Shown piece by piece: positions 4,822 to 22,107 of a stretch of DNA of 43,619 nucleotides. The position numbers and the translations under genes are program-made. The notes beneath the pieces were generated by a model. That model was given only the letters and a program-made list of their open reading frames with translations, searched no databases and was not told where the DNA came from. Origin of the DNA: Vulcanimicrobiota bacterium (GTDB taxonomy: Bacteria > Vulcanimicrobiota > Xenobia > Xenobiales > JADMJV01); the NCBI GenBank assembly GCA_022842865.1, contig JALHOV010000001.1, forward strand, positions 1 through 43,619, read 5' to 3'. The number at the start of each line of letters is the position of its first letter. The first letter of the stretch is position 1.

Positions 4822-5937
4822 TCAGGCAACCATTGCCAACAAGGAAGCTTCCTGAGCACGCGGGTAGCGTCGATAATCCTCGCTTCCCCGCCAGCCACAC
4901 CAGATATCAAGCCAGAAGGCGATGTCCAGGGTGCGTTCCTCACGAATGTCTTTGCCGAACTGGTTGAAAAATCGCACCCCGTGCGGGGCGCTGCCGACAA
5001 TCTTCAGTCGATTCTCGTGCACGTTTTTATGACATTTGCTGCACAAGGTGAGAAGATTGTCAGCAACAGTCAGTCCGCCATCCGAGTAATAAATAATGTG
5101 GTGAACGTCGAGCCAAATCGTATTCGGACAGCCGGGCACGGCACAGACGTGGCCATCGCGTCTCAGGATTTTGCGGCGATGGGCTTTGCTCGGAAATCGC
5201 GATTTGGGATCAACAATCTCGATTTCCGGATTGCCCGGACAGTCTTCGGTTTCTGCATTGATCACATCGGTCCACTGCAGATCCTTGAGGGACTCCCGGC
5301 GGACGTTTGCGAGTTGCTGTTCATCCACCTCATGTCCCGCCAGCTTCTCGGCGCAGAGCATTTCGATCGCCTCGGCCGCGGAAACGACACGCCCTGCCTG
5401 TTGGGACATCAGCTGCAGACACCGCTCCAAGACGGCCATCTGGTCAGGCTCAAACCGGCAACGCAGTTCGCTGCGAGGCGCATTCTTGACGGGCCGATCC
5501 GGTGGGATCTCTCCCCGCCGGGAACGCGCCACCAGGTCCTCAATCTCGGCATAGGTGTGATTGCGGCACAGCGCAGCCCACCCGCCCTCGGTTACCTCCG
5601 TAGCTACGCGGATGATTTCGCGTAACTTCGACCATTCGATCCGCCCCTCGTTGGCCAGGAAGCGCAAGTAAGGAAGGCACTCGAGTGCCCGCGCCACCAG
5701 CGCCAGTCGCAGGGCTTCCCGGTGCGGCAGACCCAACTGAAGAACCGCGTAATGCACACCGCTGCAACAACCGTGTTCCAAATAGGCGCCGGATTGTTCG
5801 ATGGCCACAATCAGGCGTCCCAGCAGGGCTCGGTGGCGCGTCAAGCTGCCGGCCGTCTTCTTGGCCAGCTGGTGCAAAGCATGGGAATCCATGCGAATCA
5901 TTTCGTCGAGAGTGAGGGAGACGGGGTCCAGTTCCAC
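4822..5937 (-). CDS. HNH endonuclease domain protein (DUF222-like N-terminus plus C-terminal HNH)
   Basis: C-terminal sequence HVCAVPGCPNTIWLDVHHIIYYSDGGLTVADNLLTLCSKCHKNVHE is a classical HNH/zinc-finger nuclease motif. Confidence 0.85.
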   Translation of the reverse strand: MELDPVSLTLDEMIRMDSHALHQLAKKTAGSLTRHRALLGRLIVAIEQSGAYLEHGCCSGVHYAVLQLGLPHREALRLALVARALECLPYLRFLANEGRIEWSKLREIIRVATEVTEGGWAALCRNHTYAEIEDLVARSRRGEIPPDRPVKNAPRSELRCRFEPDQMAVLERCLQLMSQQAGRVVSAAEAIEMLCAEKLAGHEVDEQQLANVRRESLKDLQWTDVINAETEDCPGNPEIEIVDPKSRFPSKAHRRKILRRDGHVCAVPGCPNTIWLDVHHIIYYSDGGLTVADNLLTLCSKCHKNVHENRLKIVGSAPHGVRFFNQFGKDIREERTLDIAFWLDIWCGWRGSEDYRRYPRAQEASLLAMVA

Positions 5938-6117
5938 AGCTACAGACTACTATATGTTCACGCATTTATGTCAAGCCCCTGCGCTCGCCGGAAAGCAAGC
6001 CGCCCCGTGCGGGGCGAGACGCCCCCGATCCCGCGCTAATGAGTACCTCGATCCTGAGTGAGCAAGCCTCCCAGGCTTTACTCTACAGGTCAACCTCTCG
6101 GATCGGCGGACGACTTC

Positions 6118-6912
6118 ATGAAAAAGATACTGGTGATTTTAAGCAGCGCGGACCATCTGGACCTGGCCAACGGTCAGCGTCTCAAAACCGGATTTTTTCT
6201 GAATGAATTCGGGGTTCCGGCCGAGCAGCTGGCGAAAGCCGGATTCCAGCTGGTGCTGGCCAATCCACGAGGCAATCGACCGGCGATGGACCCAGGCTCA
6301 GACGACCCCTCGTTTTTTGGCAAGGATCAGCAGCGTTATGAGCGCATCAAAGCATTTATCCAGCAACTCCCCGATCTCGACAAGCCCAAGACGTTCGCCC
6401 AGGTATTGACCGAAGGACTGGACGGCTATGCCGGGCTATTTGTCCCGGGCGGACACGCACCGATGGCTGACCTGCTGGTGGATGCGCAATTGGGACAAAT
6501 TCTACGCCATTTTCATAAGCATTCCAAACCCACCGCCATGATCTGTCACGGTCAGGCGGCGGCGCTGTCGGCCCAGTTTGACCCGATCGGCTTCGTGGCC
6601 GCGCGAAAAGAGGGACGGGAGGTCCCGGCTCAGGACTGGATCTACGCCAGTTACGCTATGACCGTCTTGTCCAATATCGAAGAGCGACTGGCCGAAACCA
6701 GTATGCCGGCCAAGATGCAATTTCACATCGAGAGCGCCCTTAAGGCGGCCGGAGCGAAAATGGACGTAGCCTGGATTCCCATGCAGTCCAAGGTCGTGCG
6801 CGACCGTGAGCTGATTACCGGGCAGAATCCCGCTTCGGCTGAAGAGCTGGCCCGCCAATTTCTGGAGATGCTCGGCGCCCGCCAACCGGCCGGCTCCCGT
6901 CAAGACGGCTAA
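6118..6912 (+). CDS. DJ-1/PfpI family (type 1 glutamine amidotransferase-like) protein
   Basis: Start chosen at MKKILVILSS. Motifs: FVPGGHAP and the nucleophile elbow AMICHGQAAL, plus the ELITGQNPAS tail typical of Hsp31/DJ-1-like proteins. Confidence 0.8.
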   Translation: MKKILVILSSADHLDLANGQRLKTGFFLNEFGVPAEQLAKAGFQLVLANPRGNRPAMDPGSDDPSFFGKDQQRYERIKAFIQQLPDLDKPKTFAQVLTEGLDGYAGLFVPGGHAPMADLLVDAQLGQILRHFHKHSKPTAMICHGQAAALSAQFDPIGFVAARKEGREVPAQDWIYASYAMTVLSNIEERLAETSMPAKMQFHIESALKAAGAKMDVAWIPMQSKVVRDRELITGQNPASAEELARQFLEMLGARQPAGSRQDG

Positions 6913-10036: not shown

Positions 10037-10249
10037 ATGAAAAACAAACTGGGAATGCTTTTGATCTTGACGGCCCTGGCCGGCTGCGCGACCCCCAAGA
10101 TCGACCTGAATGCCAACAAGATCAAGTCGAAACAGAAAGCCCGGGTGACCGGCAACAACCAGAACCTCAAAGATCAGACCGGCACCGACCTGGAACTGGT
10201 GAAGCCCAAAAAGCGCAAGTTCGGAATGCCCACCTCGGTTGAGCCCTAG
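10037..10249 (+). CDS. Small lipoprotein (70 aa), Lys-rich
   Basis: MKNKLGMLLILTALAGCATP carries a lipobox (LAGC). The 3' end overlaps the next gene's TTG start. Confidence 0.55.
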   Translation: MKNKLGMLLILTALAGCATPKIDLNANKIKSKQKARVTGNNQNLKDQTGTDLELVKPKKRKFGMPTSVEP

Positions 10250-11651
10250 AGTCCTCCCCTTACTGCTGAGTTTGCTGGTTCTCCCGGTGGCGGCCGAGGA
10301 GCTGGTCAAGGTCGGTCACACCCGTCAGCTGCGCGGAGCCTGGGTGGCCAGCGTGGCCAACATGCACTGGCCGGCTCAGTCGGGGCTGACGTCCGCGCGA
10401 CAGCGGGAGGATCTGAGGCTTATGCTAGATCGTCTGGCCGAGGCTCGCTTCAACGCGGTCTTCTTCCAGGTCCGTCCTGAGGGCGATGCTCTCTATCGCT
10501 CTGAACTGGAACCCTGGAGCCGCTTCCTGAGCGGTCGCCAGGGTCACGATCCCGGCTATGACCCTCTGAATTTTCTGGTCAACGAGGCTCACCGGCGCGG
10601 TCTGGAAGTGCACGCCTGGCTGAATCCTTACCGGGCCCAGGCCACACCGCCTCCCCCGACTGCGGAATTGCCGGTCGCTCCCCATCAGGCAGCCGTGGAA
10701 CCCGAAAGCGTGCTCAGCTATGGGGCGCTGCGCTGGATGGACCCAGGCTCGCCCTCGGTGCGCGGGCGTTTAGTACGCGTCTGCCAGGACTTGACCCGGC
10801 GCTACGACCTGGACGGAATGCATTTCGACGACTATTTTTATCCCTACCCGGACTGGGAACTGCCTTTTCCCGACCAGGCCAGCTACACCCGCAGTGGGAC
10901 CAACCTGAGCCTGGGCGACTGGCGCCGGGCCCAGGTCAACGAAGCCATCCAGGAAGTCTCCTCGGCCATCGCCGCCGAAAAGCCCTACGTGCGCTTCGGT
11001 ATCTCACCTTTTGGCATACCGGCCCCCGAAAAGCCCGAGCAAATCAGTGGTTTGGACCAATACGAAAAGCTCTACGCGGATACGCAGCGTTGGATGGACG
11101 AAGGCTGGGTGGACTATCTGGCTCCCCAACTCTACTGGCCCACCACTCGCCAGGCTCAAGCCTACGAGCCGCTATTGAAGTGGTGGCGAGAGCACGCCCG
11201 GGAGGGCCGCTACATCTTTCCCGGGCTCAACCTGGCCGCCATGGGCACCAAGAGCGAGTGGGACCTGGCTGAGTACCGCCGAGAGCTAGCCCTGGCCGAG
11301 GGCTGCGGCGGCTATATCATTTGGAACGTCGCGCCAATTTTAGAGAATCGACAGAATGTGAAAGAGGAGTTGTTCGCCGAAGCCGAGGTGCTAACGCCGC
11401 CCCTGGCGCGTTGCGCGGACCGGGTCGCCTCCGCCCCGGACGTCTCCTGCGAGGGCTCCCGGGTACGCCTGACCTATACCGACCGGGTGCCCTGGCGCGC
11501 CTTTACCGTCTATGGCTGGAATGGAGACGTCTGGGCGCTACATCAGATCGTGCGCTCGGCAGAGCTGGATTTGCCGGCGGGCCGCTGGGCGCTGGCCTCG
11601 GTCAGTCGCGACGGTGCCGAAAGTCTGGCTCGGGTGGTAACTATCCCCTAG
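10239..11651 (+). CDS. Glycoside hydrolase-like family 10 (GHL10/DUF187, YngK-like) secreted protein
   Basis: Signal peptide MSPRVLPLLLSLLVLPVAA. Family signature: RGAWVASV...FNAVFFQVRPEGDALYRSELEPWS...GYDPLNFLVNEAHRRGLEVHAWLNPY. Confidence 0.8.
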   Translation: MSPRVLPLLLSLLVLPVAAEELVKVGHTRQLRGAWVASVANMHWPAQSGLTSARQREDLRLMLDRLAEARFNAVFFQVRPEGDALYRSELEPWSRFLSGRQGHDPGYDPLNFLVNEAHRRGLEVHAWLNPYRAQATPPPPTAELPVAPHQAAVEPESVLSYGALRWMDPGSPSVRGRLVRVCQDLTRRYDLDGMHFDDYFYPYPDWELPFPDQASYTRSGTNLSLGDWRRAQVNEAIQEVSSAIAAEKPYVRFGISPFGIPAPEKPEQISGLDQYEKLYADTQRWMDEGWVDYLAPQLYWPTTRQAQAYEPLLKWWREHAREGRYIFPGLNLAAMGTKSEWDLAEYRRELALAEGCGGYIIWNVAPILENRQNVKEELFAEAEVLTPPLARCADRVASAPDVSCEGSRVRLTYTDRVPWRAFTVYGWNGDVWALHQIVRSAELDLPAGRWALASVSRDGAESLARVVTIP

Positions 11652-11829
11652 CCTTTTCAGTTACTTTTCCGGGTGCTTGTTTTAGCATGCTTGACATGAA
11701 AATACAGCCAGTCCGAGCGAAACTGAAAAAAGCCCTGGACTACACCAAGCACGGCCCACCACAGCCTCCAATTATGAGAAGCCACAGATCATTCAGGCCG
11801 CTTCCTCTGCCTGTCTGGCCGGATTTTAT

Positions 11830-12591
11830 ATGATGGGGCCCGCCGGTGCGGTAACGCAAACAGCGGCCGCTCTCGTAGGCCTGAAGACCCAGGAGAAATA
11901 CGGCAAATGGGTGGGCGCCCTTTCTGGCGCCGCCACCGGCGCCGCTCTGGCTGCCTTGTCCGGCCATCTTCTAGGCACTCCCGGATTGGCCGTGCAAGCC
12001 ACTCTGGGCGGCATCGGCGGGGCCTTCTGCACCTTGCGCACCAACCAGGTATCCCGATTCCGCGACGCCGGCGCTTACGGCCTGACTTTCGGCTCGCCTC
12101 TGGCTGCAGGCGGCGCCAAAGCCGCACTGGGTCTGTCTTCGGTGCTGGCCGCTGAGGTGGAACACGAGGGCAAACGCGCTCTGGTGGCGGCGGGAATGGG
12201 CGCGGCCACCGGGGTGGCGCTGTCCATGGCCGGAATGAATCACTTCTCCCCGCTGGTCTCCGCCGCAGCCTGCGCCGGACTATCGGTATTCGCCTCAGTC
12301 TGCGGCCCTAGAGTCGCCATGGTCATGCGCAACGCCAGCGAAGACCTCGGCCAGAAGATGAGCAAGAGCCAGGCAGAATCAAAGGAAAAGAGCCTGACCG
12401 CCCGCATGCTGGGAACCTTGCCGATGGCCGCCGTGGCTCAAAGCGTGGCCGCCTTCACGATGGGCAAGTTCAACCCCGTTTCCATCGGCGTAGGCTTCGC
12501 AATCGACGCCTCCACCTCAGCCTACGAGGTCTACCTGAACCACAAGCAGGAAAAAGCGCAGGCCGACAAACCCCAGCCGCCTGGGGAGTGA
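11830..12591 (+). CDS. Gly/Ala-rich (glycine-zipper-like) membrane protein, function unknown
   Basis: 253-aa ORF with several G/A-rich hydrophobic segments (GALSGAATGAALAALSG, AAGMGAATGVALSMAG). The ATG overlaps the TGA of an upstream 45-codon ORF (ATGA). Confidence 0.55.
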   Translation: MMGPAGAVTQTAAALVGLKTQEKYGKWVGALSGAATGAALAALSGHLLGTPGLAVQATLGGIGGAFCTLRTNQVSRFRDAGAYGLTFGSPLAAGGAKAALGLSSVLAAEVEHEGKRALVAAGMGAATGVALSMAGMNHFSPLVSAAACAGLSVFASVCGPRVAMVMRNASEDLGQKMSKSQAESKEKSLTARMLGTLPMAAVAQSVAAFTMGKFNPVSIGVGFAIDASTSAYEVYLNHKQEKAQADKPQPPGE

Positions 12592-12598
12592 AAGCGAG

Positions 12599-12991
12599 TT
12601 AGTGGCGACTGCTGTTATTGGTGCCCATCGAGAGAGCGCCCAGAGCGGTGGCGCCTAGCACTCCCGGCAGGCCGAAGTGCCCACCAGCGTAGCCGCTGAG
12701 TCCGCCCACGATGGCGGCGCTGATCATGGCGCCGCGATTCTCTTTGCTGAAACCTCCGGCCCGGATGGCTACCACCGCGGCCCCGGCCAAGGCTCCTACC
12801 AAGAACGGATGCTGAGGAACGAGCATTCCGGCCAGAGCGGGGGCACCGAAGTGGACTGCGCCCAAACTGGCGCCTTCGAGAAAAGCGCTCTTGTCGGAGG
12901 GCCCTTTGCGAGCTTCTTTCGGCTCCGGTTGCGGCTGGTTGGCCAGTTTCTGGGGTAGACGGGGAGTCGGCTGGAATCGTTGTATTTGCAT
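12599..12991 (-). CDS. Glycine-zipper membrane protein (130 aa), function unknown
   Basis: Start chosen at MQIQRFQP. Pro/Gln-rich N-terminus followed by GxxxG-type hydrophobic segments (LVGALAGAAVVAI, IVGGLSGYAGGHFGLPGVLGATALGALS). Confidence 0.5.
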   Translation of the reverse strand: MQIQRFQPTPRLPQKLANQPQPEPKEARKGPSDKSAFLEGASLGAVHFGAPALAGMLVPQHPFLVGALAGAAVVAIRAGGFSKENRGAMISAAIVGGLSGYAGGHFGLPGVLGATALGALSMGTNNSSRH

Positions 12992-13065
12992 AGTCCCATG
13001 AGAATAGCTGAGCTGCCTAAAAAATCTCTCAAAGCTACCCTGGCCAGGGGCGGGCACCGAAGGGA

Positions 13066-13254
13066 CTACCCTCCGGATTGTTCTCGGGGATGATTCGGGC
13101 GATCCACCGAGGACCCTTGCTGGTCATACCAGCGTCTCGGATCCTTACGGGCCTCGTGGTCGGGCTTGGGCATATCGCCTTGCAGGGAGTGGGGCCTAAG
13201 CCGATGCATGTGGTCGACCTCGGGAATTTGCTCTTTCCAGTCCTGGTTATCCAT
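13066..13254 (-). CDS. Small hydrophilic protein (62 aa), function unknown
   Basis: AGGAGG lies 9 nt upstream of ATG 13254. The gene sits directly downstream of, and co-directional with, the C39-like peptidase gene. Confidence 0.5.
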   Translation of the reverse strand: MDNQDWKEQIPEVDHMHRLRPHSLQGDMPKPDHEARKDPRRWYDQQGSSVDRPNHPREQSGG

Positions 13255-13327
13255 CTTACAAAGCCTCCTGTTGCCCCTTCAGTGTAACCCGAGAGACCGC
13301 GCGCAACTCGGGATCCCAGTCCTGCCT

Positions 13328-14248
13328 TCAGGGCTTGGGAGCAAGAGCGATAGCCTCGATAAAGAACTGCTCCATCTCCCCTTCCGGCAAACGAGCCCCC
13401 GGGGTTGGAAAAAAACCGCCGGGATCATTGATGACATAATCAGAGCCCAGGCGGCCCACGCACAACAAGAAGTGATCTCCACCGGGAGAGCCAATGCGGT
13501 TGGTGTCGCCGCCGACCACCACCAGGTGTCCTTCGGCCAACGCCCGATCGATGTCCTGATACTTGCGGATCCGCTGGGAATGCAGGCCTAACTGTGTGGC
13601 TACCCGCTCGATTTCGCGGGCCTTGGTGGCGCGATTCTGATCCTGATTACCCACCGTCATCAATTGCCGGCACCATTCAATTAACCCCTGGCGATCGCCG
13701 GGCATCAAACCTTCGGGAGCCAAACCGTAAGCCAGGGCCACCATGGCCATGCAGGCGGGTCCGCAGTTGGCGCTTTGCTTTGGCGCCCATTGATTGTAGC
13801 GAGACTGATACTGGGTCACGAAGTAATCGGCCGGATTGGCCGGGACGGCTTTACGGGACACTACGCGACCTTGAACCTTCGGATGGACTCGCAGAACCCC
13901 GCCCGCGTCCCGACTGGTGCTCAGTCCCAGCGCCTGGCAGTAAGCCTCGGCCGGCACGAACACGTCCCCGCTTTCGACCAACAGAGCGATTTGCTTCTCT
14001 CCGACCCGGATGAAGCCACCCGGCACCGCGGCCGGCGGCGCTTCCTCTTGAATCGCTCCCCAAAATCCCTCGCCCGCCTCCCCCATCCGGGCGCCCAAGG
14101 CCTGGGAAAAGGGTTGCAGCAACACGTGGACGGTGCCGTGCCTCACCAAACAAGGGCCCTCGAAACGCTTCTCTTGAATGCGAATGTTCTGGGACCAGAC
14201 GGGTGAGGCCCCGAGCCCCAGCCACAACCAAAGAACAAAGTGCTTCAT
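13328..14248 (-). CDS. Secreted C39-like cysteine peptidase domain protein
   Basis: Start chosen at MKHFVLWLWLGLGASPVWSQ (signal peptide). C-terminal domain carries NCGPACMAMVALAYG (Cys motif) and GGDHFLLCVG..VINDPGG (His motif), as in Peptidase_C39_2. Confidence 0.7.
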   Translation of the reverse strand: MKHFVLWLWLGLGASPVWSQNIRIQEKRFEGPCLVRHGTVHVLLQPFSQALGARMGEAGEGFWGAIQEEAPPAAVPGGFIRVGEKQIALLVESGDVFVPAEAYCQALGLSTSRDAGGVLRVHPKVQGRVVSRKAVPANPADYFVTQYQSRYNQWAPKQSANCGPACMAMVALAYGLAPEGLMPGDRQGLIEWCRQLMTVGNQDQNRATKAREIERVATQLGLHSQRIRKYQDIDRALAEGHLVVVGGDTNRIGSPGGDHFLLCVGRLGSDYVINDPGGFFPTPGARLPEGEMEQFFIEAIALAPKP

Positions 14249-14668: not shown

Positions 14669-14715
14669 AGTCAGGCCGCTAGGGATTGCAGCCCGGAAGT
14701 GGCGAATCGGATGCC

Positions 14716-15714
14716 ATGTTCAAACCGAAAACCCTTATGGCAGGCCTGCTCGTCGGCCTGATGACCCTCGCCCCTACAGCTGGAGCGGATGGTCTCTCCA
14801 AGCCCTCACCCTTAGCGGACCTTTGCGAGTGGGCGCTGCAAGTGCCGCTCACCGAGGCTCAGCGCCAGTCCTTAGCCCAGCTCATCACTGGTTTGCCCCC
14901 TTCTCGTTTGGCGCAGATGAATGCTGACGAGCAGCGGCTCCAGGCGACCGATGTGCAGCAGCGCAATTCGCTGAGAGCCGAGCTACACGGTCACTTGCTG
15001 GGGGGCAGCGATGCCCTGGCAAGCTGGGCCCTGCAAACCGAGAGCACCTCCAGCCTGGTGCTGGTAGCCGGCGAGCCCGCCCTGACCAGTCAGGCCATGG
15101 CGGCCTTCTGTGAGTGGCTGCTGTTCGCGGTCGACCCGGAGAACCCACCGGTCGTGTCAGCGCAGTTGGCCGCGATTCTGGACAGGGCGGTGGAAGATTT
15201 GTATCCCACCCTGGATGCCACCCAGCGAGCCCACCTGGCACAACTTCCCCTGGGATGGGCCAGTCTGCGCAAGCAATGGCCGGGCCTGGATGCCGCTCAT
15301 CGCGAGCAACTGCAGAGTAAATGGCGGGCTCAACTGGGTCCCATTTTCCAGCGTCAGAGCAAACTCCAACTGGCTAAACTGGCCCTCGACCAGTGCCTGC
15401 TTACGCTTCAGAACGGCGAACCGGGGGACCTGGACCCCAAACTGGCCCGACTCCAGTTCCTGGCCAATGGTTTGCGCCAGGAAAAAGACCCCCAATGCGC
15501 CCAGGCGGCCAGCCAGCTGGACCTGGTTATCGCGGACATTCAGCGGGGTCAGCAACAGCAAGCCTCCATCGATGCCATCAACAAGGTCTCCGACGAAATC
15601 AGCCAGCGCAGCCAGCTTCCGGGAATTGACTCAACCAGCCTCAAGCCCATGTTCTTCGGTCGCCGAGGCGGCCTTTTCGTCGGCGACGGCACCGGGATGC
15701 CCTACCGCTACTGA
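14716..15714 (+). CDS. Secreted hypothetical protein (Gln/Leu-rich helical)
   Basis: Start chosen at MFKPKTLMAGLLVGLMTLAPTAGADG (signal peptide). Followed by a strong terminator hairpin. Confidence 0.6.
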   Translation: MFKPKTLMAGLLVGLMTLAPTAGADGLSKPSPLADLCEWALQVPLTEAQRQSLAQLITGLPPSRLAQMNADEQRLQATDVQQRNSLRAELHGHLLGGSDALASWALQTESTSSLVLVAGEPALTSQAMAAFCEWLLFAVDPENPPVVSAQLAAILDRAVEDLYPTLDATQRAHLAQLPLGWASLRKQWPGLDAAHREQLQSKWRAQLGPIFQRQSKLQLAKLALDQCLLTLQNGEPGDLDPKLARLQFLANGLRQEKDPQCAQAASQLDLVIADIQRGQQQQASIDAINKVSDEISQRSQLPGIDSTSLKPMFFGRRGGLFVGDGTGMPYRY

Positions 15715-15743
15715 GAGGCGGCCGTTGCCGGCCGCCTCCTTTT
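15715..15743 (+). terminator. Rho-independent terminator
   Basis: Perfect 10-bp stem GAGGCGGCCG / CGGCCGCCTC with loop TTGC, followed by CTTTT. It begins 1 nt after the TGA of the 14716..15714 gene. Confidence 0.75.
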
Positions 15744-15746
15744 AGC

Positions 15747-16286
15747 TCACTTGCTGTTGACGGCGGCCATGGCCGCCTTCAACTGGTCGGCCTCTTTGGG
15801 GGTCCAGTTGACGAACACAGCGGTAGCCTTGCGTTCTTTGTACACAATAACGGTGTTCTTAACGGTCGGGTCGGTGTTGATCTTGTAGCCCGGCAGCGAC
15901 TCATCCTGAGTCCCTTTTAGTAGGGCCAGACCGACGTTGTCGGCCTTTTCCGCTTGATTCAGCTCCCGAAGATGCTCGGGAGTGTCCTGGACGAAGAGCA
16001 GAAAAGCCTTAAATTCGGCTTTGTTTTCTTGCTCTTGGACGGCCTGGCTCAGCAGGCGCATCAGCGGTTTGGTGTTGGCGTCATCTTTGCCATTGATAAA
16101 GACCTGGCACGCAGGTCGTCGACCATACTTTCAGACGGGGCAGGTATCGGTTCCGGCGTCTGGACCGGTTACATGTTGGGGATGATGGGCGGGCAGGTGA
16201 TCGCCGATGGCGGGGCCGGACTTGGGTACAGCCCAACCCGCCACGGCAATGACGGCCAGCGTCAGCAAAACGCGAAATTTTTGCAT
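15747..16286 (-). CDS. Secreted CxxC-type redox protein with in-frame TGA (candidate selenoprotein, CPV-U); alternatively a nonsense pseudogene
   Basis: ATG 16286 with GGAGG 6 nt upstream and signal peptide MQKFRVLLTLAVIAVAGWA. An in-frame TGA at 16133..16131 follows C-P-V. The frame stays open for 127 more codons, which is the 104-aa track ORF plus 24 start-less codons. A hairpin lies 13 nt after the TGA. Confidence 0.6.
16101..16117 (-). promoter_or_regulatory. SECIS-like hairpin downstream of the in-frame UGA
   Basis: Minus-strand GACCUG-CGUGC-CAGGUC (6-bp stem, 5-nt loop containing GU). It starts 13 nt after UGA 16133..16131, so the loop begins 19 nt after the UGA. Confidence 0.5.
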
Positions 16287-16403
16287 CGCATTCCTCCGAG
16301 GTATAGATTTGAGCCCTGGGGCTCATGGTTCAGAGGTGCGGACAGACGGGCAACAGTCCTGCTGAGCCAGGAAAATGGCTCCGTCCAAAGGAAAGCGAAT
16401 TCC

Positions 16404-17909
16404 ATGAAAAAGCTCTTTGTGACCTGCCTTATCCTCGGGCTCGGGGCCGTACCGGTCGCCGCCCGTCCTCCCGCCTTGGAGAAAGACCTGCTTGTCTCTC
16501 GCTTTGAGAACTACGCCGAGAAATCTCGGCAAGCCTGGGGTACGCCGGGCATGGCGGTGGTGCTGGTGGCCGACGGCAAAGTGCTGTGGTCCAAGGGCTT
16601 TGGCGTGAAAGAGACGGGTGGCAGCGAGCCGGTGGACGTGAAAACCCTTTTCCAGATCGGATCGGTTTCGAAGTCCTTCACCTCCAGTCTGGTGGCCCTG
16701 CAGGTTGACCGAGGCAAGTTGAAATGGGCCGACAAAGTGCTTGACTATGACCCGGATTTTCGCATGTATGACCCCTGGGTGACGCGCGAATTTACCGTCG
16801 AGGACACCATGTCGCAGCGCAGTGGCCAGCCGAGCTACGCCACCGACCTGCTCTCCTTTCTAGGCGCCACTCGGCCCGAGATCGTTCAGGCCTTGCGGGA
16901 AGTGCGACCGGTCTCGAGCTTTCGCAGTCGGTTCGCCTACGTCAACAATCTCTGGCTGGTGTCCGCTCGGGTGCTGGAACGGGTTACCGGCCGGACTTGG
17001 GAACAAGCGGTGGCCTCCGATATTTTTCAACCGCTGGCCATGAGCCGGACCAACACCGGTTTCCAGGGGCTTTGGAGCGATTCCAACCACAGCACTCCGC
17101 ACCAGGGTAAAAAGGGCGCGATTCAACCCTTACGGGACAACTGGCCTTTCAAAGACTGGGTCTATACCTATGGACCGGCCGGTGGCATCAATTCCAACGT
17201 CGAAGACATGGGCAAATACGTCCAGATGCAATTAGGAGTCACTCCCCTCATTCAGGCGGAGAGTCTGGCGGTCATGCACTCGCCCCACGTCCTGGTCGGC
17301 GGAGCTAAAAAAGAACAGCCCAAGGCCATCTTCGAACTCGGGATGGCCAGCTATTGCCTGGGCTGGATTCGCCAGGAACTACACCCCTCCACGCTCATCT
17401 GGCACAATGGCGGCACCAGTGGCTGCAAGACGGTGGTCGGTTTCTGTCCCGACGCCGGCATGGGCATCGTGGTGCTCTCGAACCTGGGCAATACCGAGCT
17501 GCCGGAAGCCCTGATGTATCGCTACTACGATCTCTATTTCGGTCGGCCTGACTACGATTACAGCGACACGTTTCTGCGCAACCAGCATCCCGCCGCAGCC
17601 GCCACTGCGCCGCCCCAAAACCCCAGACCTCCCGCCGCTTTAACCCGCTACGTCGGAAAGTATCGGCATCCCGTCTATGGCCTGGCCGAGGTGCGCCTGG
17701 TGGGGAGCGCTCTGGAGATCGGGCTGGGCAAGACAATGCGGCTCAAACTAACTCCCTGGGATGGCGACAATTTTTCCCATTCCGACCCCACGGAGTCGGA
17801 TGCTCCGCCTCAATTTGCCGGTTTTTCCAGCGACCCCGACGGCAAGTTCTCGCAACTGCACCTGACCCTTTGTGACGACGTGCTGGGCGGACGCTTTGAG
17901 CGTCAGTAG
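16404..17909 (+). CDS. Serine hydrolase, class-C beta-lactamase fold, with a C-terminal extra domain (DUF3471-like)
   Basis: Start chosen at MKKLFVTCLILGLGAVPVAA (signal peptide). Motifs: S-x-x-K (GSVSKSFT), Y-x-N (YVNNLW) and HNGGTSG. It is a paralogue of the 3463..4815 gene. Confidence 0.85.
   Translation: MKKLFVTCLILGLGAVPVAARPPALEKDLLVSRFENYAEKSRQAWGTPGMAVVLVADGKVLWSKGFGVKETGGSEPVDVKTLFQIGSVSKSFTSSLVALQVDRGKLKWADKVLDYDPDFRMYDPWVTREFTVEDTMSQRSGQPSYATDLLSFLGATRPEIVQALREVRPVSSFRSRFAYVNNLWLVSARVLERVTGRTWEQAVASDIFQPLAMSRTNTGFQGLWSDSNHSTPHQGKKGAIQPLRDNWPFKDWVYTYGPAGGINSNVEDMGKYVQMQLGVTPLIQAESLAVMHSPHVLVGGAKKEQPKAIFELGMASYCLGWIRQELHPSTLIWHNGGTSGCKTVVGFCPDAGMGIVVLSNLGNTELPEALMYRYYDLYFGRPDYDYSDTFLRNQHPAAAATAPPQNPRPPAALTRYVGKYRHPVYGLAEVRLVGSALEIGLGKTMRLKLTPWDGDNFSHSDPTESDAPPQFAGFSSDPDGKFSQLHLTLCDDVLGGRFERQ

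Positions 17910-18702: not shown

Positions 18703-22103
<3,401 letters not shown>

Positions 22104-22107
<4 letters not shown>

Follow-up and report, generated by a model that had tools for sequence, protein, structure and literature searches.

An in-frame UGA codon and a downstream hairpin suggest an exported CxxU selenoprotein family in Vulcanimicrobiota and other bacteria

A review of May 2026 tabulates 119 families of prokaryotic selenoproteins, each with a domain identifier (PMC13188914, Table 1), and those closest in kind to the gene described here are the CxxU proteins with a thioredoxin fold, such as the SelW-like proteins (PF10262) and Trx7/PDZ (NF041199), in which selenocysteine (Sec) stands for the second cysteine (Cys) of a CxxC pair (PMC13188914). 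In the bacterial genes for such proteins the UGA codon for Sec is followed by a hairpin within the coding sequence, the Sec insertion sequence (SECIS), and the constraints compiled for bacterial SECIS elements (bSECIS) are a loop of 3-9 nucleotides (nt), an upper stem of 4-16 bp, a G in the first two loop positions, a distance of 16-37 nt from the UGA and a minimum free energy (MFE) of -7.5 kcal/mol or lower (PMC13188914). Our subject is a gene at 15747..16286, on the minus strand of a 43,619-nt stretch of a Vulcanimicrobiota genome (contig JALHOV010000001.1; the whole stretch is called the window below), with a TGA in frame at codon 52. Very probably this UGA is recoded as Sec through a SECIS, and Sec would then occupy the place of the second Cys in the CxxC pair, the arrangement known from other CxxU proteins. 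The likeness to SelW-like and Trx7/PDZ proteins extends to the common occurrence of Cys homologues, to a thioredoxin-like fold (here a predicted one) and to the hairpin inside the coding sequence after the UGA. Unlike them, the window protein has no match to their hidden Markov models, is predicted to be exported, has an invariant His 11 residues before the first Cys and, by the secondary-structure order of a modelled homologue, carries its motif some 10 residues ahead of the first core strand and apparently away from the classical strand-to-helix site.

Two other kinds of described system come close in single respects. The 1-Cys peroxiredoxins LsfA and PRDX6 and the DsbE, ResA and TlpA types of protein, many of which belong to the cell envelope, are the best structural neighbours of a modelled homologue (template modelling score, TM, 0.5-0.8), with peroxiredoxins at the top of the list, and the window protein contains the literal string PxxxTxxC (P42, T46, C49), the active-site motif of peroxiredoxins. 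However, no peroxiredoxin profile matches the window protein, the AhpC-TSA, Redoxin, Thioredoxin_8 and NF045827 models match neither it nor 21 of its homologues, and the putative Sec comes after the Cys of PxxxTxxC and not in its place. The fdhF-type SECIS of E. coli and the bSECIS consensus (PMC13188914, Fig. 2 legend) are, like the hairpin discussed below, stem-loops after the UGA with a small loop of G followed by G or U and a spacing of 16-37 nt, whereas the window hairpin has no evident bulged U, its loop CGUGC has no closing N1-N2 pair and two registers of the hairpin occur within one protein family.

Neither the window protein nor any of the 21 homologues matched an entry of Pfam, NCBIfam or the PDB sequences. 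The Pfam and NCBIfam models of the 119 catalogued families gave only chance matches at E <= 10, none of them common to the 21 homologues. Families listed with CDD or PANTHER identifiers only (cd02966, cd02970, cd10141, cd01144 and PTHR43551) are set apart by their listed motifs (UxxC, UGC, UxxS), and their Pfam counterparts (AhpC-TSA, Redoxin, Thioredoxin_8) had no match. The new selenoprotein families found with deep-Sep are different proteins from this one (PMC12013277). As far as this can be tested, the family appears to be uncatalogued; in kind it looks familiar, as a putative CxxU selenoprotein of thioredoxin fold that has Cys homologues and whose gene carries a bacterial SECIS in frame.

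Conservation of the TGA and of the frame beyond it

The gene starts at ATG 16286..16284, 6 nt downstream of a Shine-Dalgarno-like GGAGG (16293..16297, minus strand), and its codons 1-19 (16230..16286), MQKFRVLLTLAVIAVAGWA, have the basic residue, hydrophobic core and A-x-A-like end of a putative signal peptide. These features were read from the sequence; the N-termini of the homologues are similarly hydrophobic. There are 51 sense codons before the TGA at 16133..16131, which directly follows GTDTCPV and closes the C-P-V-U motif of codons 49-52 (16131..16142), and the frame then stays open for 127 codons, until the TGA at 15749..15747. Translated whole, it gives 179 residues, with the proposed Sec at codon 52, and a terminal stop. 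This architecture had been laid out in a preliminary description of the window, which also proposed that the gene encodes a selenoprotein; the architecture is borne out by the sequence and its translation, and the proposal is supported by the Cys homologues, the conservation of the TGA, the low ratio of nonsynonymous to synonymous divergence (dN/dS) and the hairpin specific to TGA-containing genes. The same description took the open reading frame (ORF) of 104 residues at 15747..16061 for the tail of this frame. That ORF indeed has no ribosome-binding site, and there is no ATG, GTG or TTG in the gap between it and the TGA, but the gap is of 23 codons and not, as had been stated, of 24. Elsewhere in the window TGA is a normal stop, as had also been claimed: it ends 13 of the 33 long ORFs, this gene included, from which it follows that the genome is not recoded, an explanation that we have therefore rejected. 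A scan of the window found no other convincing in-frame TGA.

A search of 5.8 billion proteins with the window protein, its U written as C, returned 26 matches, about 20 of them full-length (170-200 residues, 35-45% identity, covering 85-97% of the window protein). C-P-[VP]-C-K-Y-G is present in all of these ~20, its second Cys lying in the column of the TGA. In the alignment of the 21 full-length homologues C51 and C54 are invariant, C54 being the residue aligned with the TGA, and so is the His 11 residues upstream of the first Cys. Cys also occupies this column in 71 Cys-type loci from a genome collection, and overall about 80 full-length homologues have an invariant C-P/F-x-C there, in most general form C-P-x-C-K/T-Y/F-G, with Cys exactly at the position of the TGA. 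The motif given for Cys homologues in the preliminary description, C-x-x-C-K/R-Y-G-x-x-P, agrees with these proteins.

The closest relatives (64-75% identity) are to be found in databases only as C-terminal fragments of 104-115 residues, one database protein terminates exactly at ...TDTCPV, and the exact 51-residue product has been called on seven contigs. Where the DNA was examined, the same architecture with TGA was seen in five further lineages (L001/L002, L003, L005/L006, L007/L008 and L077), two of the records being labelled Vulcanimicrobiota, formerly Eremiobacterota. Altogether the TGA is kept in 14 distinct genes, six of Vulcanimicrobiota type (the window, L001, L003, L005, L007 and L077) and eight others (L023, L089, L094 and L105-L109). 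Three of the signs by which selenoprotein genes are recognized (PMC1088965, PMC13188914) are thus present in this family: the TGA aligns with Cys in at least two homologues, TGA-containing homologues exist in other organisms, and the protein is conserved past the TGA. The check that had been proposed for this column, a Cys or Sec in homologues, came out on both counts, with Cys in full-length homologues and TGA in many independent relatives.

Conservation past the TGA was measured by pairwise comparison of five Vulcanimicrobiota-type lineages, L077 being left out. Synonymous divergence (dS) between them is 0.6-2.5, near saturation, and yet the TGA is invariant; dN/dS is 0.06-0.22 after the TGA (codons 53-178, at dS 0.8-2.5), similar to the 0.01-0.14 before it, and the stretch of low dN/dS takes in the 23 codons that no gene caller has annotated. 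Because the TGA is invariant at near-saturated dS and dN/dS downstream is low, the 127 codons beyond it are evidently translated in this frame, which in effect rules out a stand-alone 51-residue peptide and two outcomes that the preliminary description had named as fatal to its proposal, a pseudogene and a family that ends at the TGA. On these sequence comparisons the two halves are one conserved coding unit for a single 179-residue protein that is predicted to be exported.

The hairpin downstream of the UGA

By the established bacterial pathway, a ribosome that reaches the UGA at 16133..16131 would meet, 13-29 nt downstream, a hairpin acting as a SECIS, which would recruit SelB, guanosine triphosphate and Sec-tRNA(Sec); Sec would be inserted, and translation would go on to the real stop at 15749..15747. 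The candidate is GACCUG-CGUGC-CAGGUC at 16117..16101 (minus strand), found where it had been reported, 13 nt past the TGA. Its stem has 6 bp, its loop has 5 nt with G at position 2 followed by U and starts 19 nt past the UGA, and its MFE is between -8.5 kcal/mol (27-nt local fold) and -10.1 kcal/mol (45 nt), all of which fall within the published bSECIS constraints, so that the bacterial SECIS layout claimed for it has held up. An extended lower stem round the core (16094..16125) appears in the MFE structure but is not conserved in relatives and is a weak feature.

What gives this hairpin its weight is the comparison with relatives. In every TGA gene a hairpin whose loop carries G[G/U] follows the UGA at 19-27 nt, and the Cys genes are mostly without one. 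At least five contiguous pairs are formed in 14 of 14 TGA genes; there are two alternative registers, and the loop is CGUGY, CGGUG or GGUC. In ten TGA lineages (type 1) the stem is (A/C)(G/C)(A/G)CCUG / CAGGU(C/G)U over the codons for R/T-P-A-x-Q-V, with the loop CGUGY or CGGUG; in L094, L107, L108 and L109 the stem is shifted downstream by two to three codons and reads (G/A)UCCA / UGGA(U/C), with GGUC as its loop. The loop of the E. coli fdhF SECIS is also GGUC. The best contiguous pairing averages 6.5 in the 14 TGA genes, and the mean of 78 Cys genes is 3.2 (p = 3e-9 by a Mann-Whitney test, p = 1e-6 when each clade contributes a single value); the type-1 register, always paired in type-1 TGA genes, seldom is in Cys genes.

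This difference arises although the peptide is the same, since Cys genes encode RPAVQVW with other codons. Pro+6 is CCT in nine of nine type-1 TGA genes compared to 9 of 56 Cys genes, and Val+10 is GTC in 10 of 11 TGA genes compared to 17 of 56. The contrast between TGA and Cys genes and these codon choices argue that the RNA structure is itself under selection and is not a by-product of the peptide; it appears from the sequences that the hairpin is held by codon choice only in genes that contain the TGA.

One codon within the hairpin also distinguishes some of the proteins. Codon 60 (16107..16109, minus strand), eight residues past the proposed Sec, is a Cys codon (UGC) inside the hairpin loop, where it supplies the "UG" of CGUGY. 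Cys (UGC or UGU) stands at this position in all six Vulcanimicrobiota-type TGA genes and Val in every other member of the family (RPACQVF as compared to RPAVQVW). The change could serve the RNA, the protein (as a resolving Cys) or both.

Competing explanations of the in-frame UGA

A number of results weigh against a Sec codon or, at least, lend it nothing. Taken alone, the window hairpin is no better than chance: at -10.1 kcal/mol over 45 nt its z is -0.62, and 43 of 200 shuffled sequences fold as well, so its significance derives only from the comparison with relatives. Rfam gave no SECIS or other relevant match, whether for the whole window at the gathering threshold or for 16000..16200 at an E-value threshold. 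Part of the stem is dictated by the conserved peptide R-P-A-x-Q-V, and covariation is thin, amounting to one compensatory change from G-C to C-G (L089) and one G-U pair (L106); in a formal count, one compensatory pair was also reached in 52 of 500 shuffles. Because this count is weak, the argument rests on the contrast between Sec and Cys genes. No selA, selB, selD or tRNA-Sec was seen in the window and 612 kb of flanking sequence, a tiny sample, in which ARAGORN and a scan for SelD motifs returned neither tRNA-Sec nor SelD. Literature searches returned nothing relevant on Sec in Vulcanimicrobiota or Eremiobacterota, and clustering of the neighbourhoods of about 80 loci revealed no conserved partner gene. 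Finally, in the secondary-structure order of a modelled homologue (P0016, see below) the CxxC/U at 51-54 comes some 10 residues ahead of the first core strand (61-66), which is followed by a helix (71-87).

All of the comparative evidence given above would fit equally well with a UGA that is recoded with the help of the hairpin and SelB but receives Cys from a SelC*-type tRNA (tRNA-ReC), the product being an ordinary CxxC protein. Such a tRNA is described as decoding UGA as Cys when a SECIS lies downstream, and tRNA-ReC-like tRNAs were present, alongside canonical SelC, in five of five Armatimonadota genomes with UXXU hydrogenases (PMC13582414), the phylum to which most members of the window family belong. 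In that report, however, tRNA-ReC occurs together with canonical tRNA-Sec; it is also hard to see why a costly signal would be maintained for Cys, given that a single mutation would yield TGC, which most relatives use, and no tRNA-ReC was found in the window and its flanks, small as that sample is. We regard insertion of Cys as improbable. Somewhat less probable still is leaky termination, in which a near-cognate tRNA for Trp, Arg or Cys would read through the UGA at a low level without any Sec machinery, yielding the short peptide and a little full-length protein. UGA is the leakiest of the stop codons, and the Sec machinery of this genome rests on inference. But the column is invariantly Cys in the ~80 homologues, so that with Trp or Arg the only invariant motif would be lost; a hairpin specific to TGA genes, with G[G/U] in its loop and the spacing of a SECIS, would be unexpected; and the strong purifying selection on the 127 downstream codons argues for efficient production of the whole protein.

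That public gene callers annotate a split at the TGA in every relative is the one point in favour of a broken or divided gene, whether a nonsense pseudogene or a separate 51-residue peptide followed by a 104-residue protein. We consider this very unlikely in view of the 14 distinct genes that keep the TGA at near-saturated dS, the dN/dS of 0.06-0.22 after it, a second part with neither a start codon nor a ribosome-binding site, and homologues that are single polypeptides. A sequencing or assembly error hiding a TGC or TGT, which had been raised as a concern in the preliminary description, has only the general prior that single-base errors happen to recommend it: a 540-nt gene identical to that in the window, TGA included, is present in four independently assembled runs (SRR28154523, -24, -25 and -29), and the same TGA recurs in many unrelated assemblies of relatives. 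Its probability is negligible. Recoding of the UGA as Sec thus seems to us by far the best account of the locus.

Family, predicted fold and genomic surroundings

A scan of one genome per species identified 303 relatives, mostly in Armatimonadota (Fimbriimonadaceae, Chthonomonas), with a few in Vulcanimicrobiota and some in Bacteroidota, and among them is a Chthonomonas metagenome-assembled genome with TGA at the same column (L023). A metagenome scan returned 11 loci, among them L094, which has the TGA, and a profile search of 1.8 billion cluster representatives yielded 1168 family members. About 33 of the best 150 representatives are proteins of ~100-130 residues that start just past the motif, often at the GTG of "VQVW", which is what gene callers produce when there is a TGA upstream; in all six that were examined at the DNA level (L089 and L105-L109) the TGA is at the expected column. 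In a rough neighbour-joining tree the TGA forms are scattered over at least five distinct positions among the Cys forms, and this scatter implies that Sec and Cys have been exchanged repeatedly. On balance we favour the view, with less assurance than for the recoding of the window gene itself, that these proteins are an uncatalogued and widespread family of exported selenoproteins, in which about a fifth of the sequence clusters use Sec, five or more exchanges between Cys and Sec have taken place, codon choice on the conserved RPAVQVW gives rise to the SECIS in two alternative registers, and the redox or metal site, H-x10-C-P-x-U, lies outside the classical active site of the thioredoxin fold. 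Two Cys-type (TGC) genes, L018 (3001-3504) and L048 (2627-3166), retain a hairpin of 6-7 bp in the type-1 register; these may be recent conversions from Sec to Cys.

The fold was modelled with AlphaFold2 for P0016, a Cys homologue 45% identical to the window protein (predicted local distance difference test score, pLDDT, 91). The order of elements is a strand, a short helix at the CxxC and then beta-alpha-beta-alpha-beta-alpha-beta-beta-alpha, and the Foldseek neighbours are 1-Cys peroxiredoxins and thiol-disulfide oxidoreductases of the TlpA, ResA and DsbE types (242 PDB matches at E <= 0.001, 10-18% identity), with TM of 0.5-0.63 by query and up to 0.81 by target (DsbE, 3gl3). A thioredoxin/peroxiredoxin-like fold is therefore predicted with high confidence for this homologue, and in the window gene the region 3' of the proposed Sec codon (15750..16130, minus strand) would supply its core strands and helices. 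In the model, the classical active-site loop position reads W-x-N-G-D, and the helix after the motif has only 5 residues. The label "redox-type" given in the preliminary description is only partly sustained, by the predicted fold, while the CxxU is seemingly not at the classical active-site position, and because it precedes the first core strand we infer a redox role and do not read it off the structure. What is universally conserved in the family is the N-terminal segment H-x10-C-P-x-C/U-K/T-Y-G. The motif, the fold and one fusion to a thioredoxin point to redox, peroxide or metal handling in the envelope, and the most likely role would be that of a thiol/selenol-based redox or metal-handling site there. 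An hhalign comparison of the family profile with a neighbouring redoxin protein was not significant (probability 0.8%).

Several Cys homologues (P0006, P0007, P0008, P0010, P0011, P0017 and P0023; L012 and L013) have a second CxxC, e.g., HCDAC, right after the F-K-A-F strand and contain four Cys in total; the window protein has QDTPEH there instead. This second pair could act in a disulfide relay or bind a metal or an Fe-S cluster. Other members are parts of larger proteins. In the Bacteroidota form the domain is the C-terminal half of lipoproteins of ~400 residues, the N-terminal half of which matches Dioxygenase_C (PF00775), as in L081-L088 (Flavobacterium, Chryseobacterium and others) and P0073, P0101, P0111 and P0142. 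Elsewhere the domain is joined to YceI, to an SMP-30-type propeller or, in P0036, to a thioredoxin with the classical WCGPC, and the H...C-P-x-C segment is kept in all fusions. NCBI names the members "hypothetical protein", and IMG calls some of them "protocatechuate 3,4-dioxygenase beta subunit", a name that has spread to stand-alone 182-residue proteins of Armatimonadota without a dioxygenase domain and was probably carried over from the Bacteroidota fusions.

The surroundings of the gene vary. In L001 (6566-6985), L003 (9289-9708) and L007 (4280-4699) it is preceded by a BTP (PF05232) membrane protein and a divergent LysR-type regulator and followed by a TerB-like gene and an acyltransferase; the context in the window is different, which implies that the gene has moved between neighbourhoods. 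In the TGA-containing locus L105, part of a 597-kb metagenome contig, genes for a redoxin/AhpC-TSA protein, catalase and MsrB occur within 5 kb (4829-6130, 11226-13388 and 13557-13952), a single and no more than suggestive case of a possible oxidative-stress neighbourhood. In the window, this gene and 14686..15714 are convergent, and a G+C-rich hairpin of 10 bp (9 GC) that separates their stops (15715..15738), with a run of T on the plus side only, is probably a shared terminator. On the opposite strand a mechanical ORF of 651 residues (15954..17909, plus strand) overlaps the putative selenoprotein gene; the real gene on that strand most likely starts at ATG 16404 and is divergent, encoding a protein of the beta-lactamase family that has DUF3471 and a signal peptide of its own. 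Ordinary and unrelated genes nearby include those for a large PAS-rich hybrid histidine kinase (18703..22107) and a GHL10 glycosyl-hydrolase-like protein (10239..11651).

In public annotation each Sec-containing member of this family at present appears as two pieces, a 51-residue peptide and a fragment without its N-terminal part, and recognition of the family would add an entry to the ~119 known families of prokaryotic selenoproteins and correct hundreds of gene models. The pairing of Sec with Cys pinpoints the functional residue of a family without known function, and the paired Sec and Cys genes, in which one peptide is spelt with different codons, offer a natural experiment on the construction of a SECIS within coding sequence. 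If the reading is true, it would extend the use of selenium to barely studied phyla of soil and sludge, Vulcanimicrobiota and Armatimonadota, and would be the first evidence of Sec decoding in Vulcanimicrobiota (Eremiobacterota).

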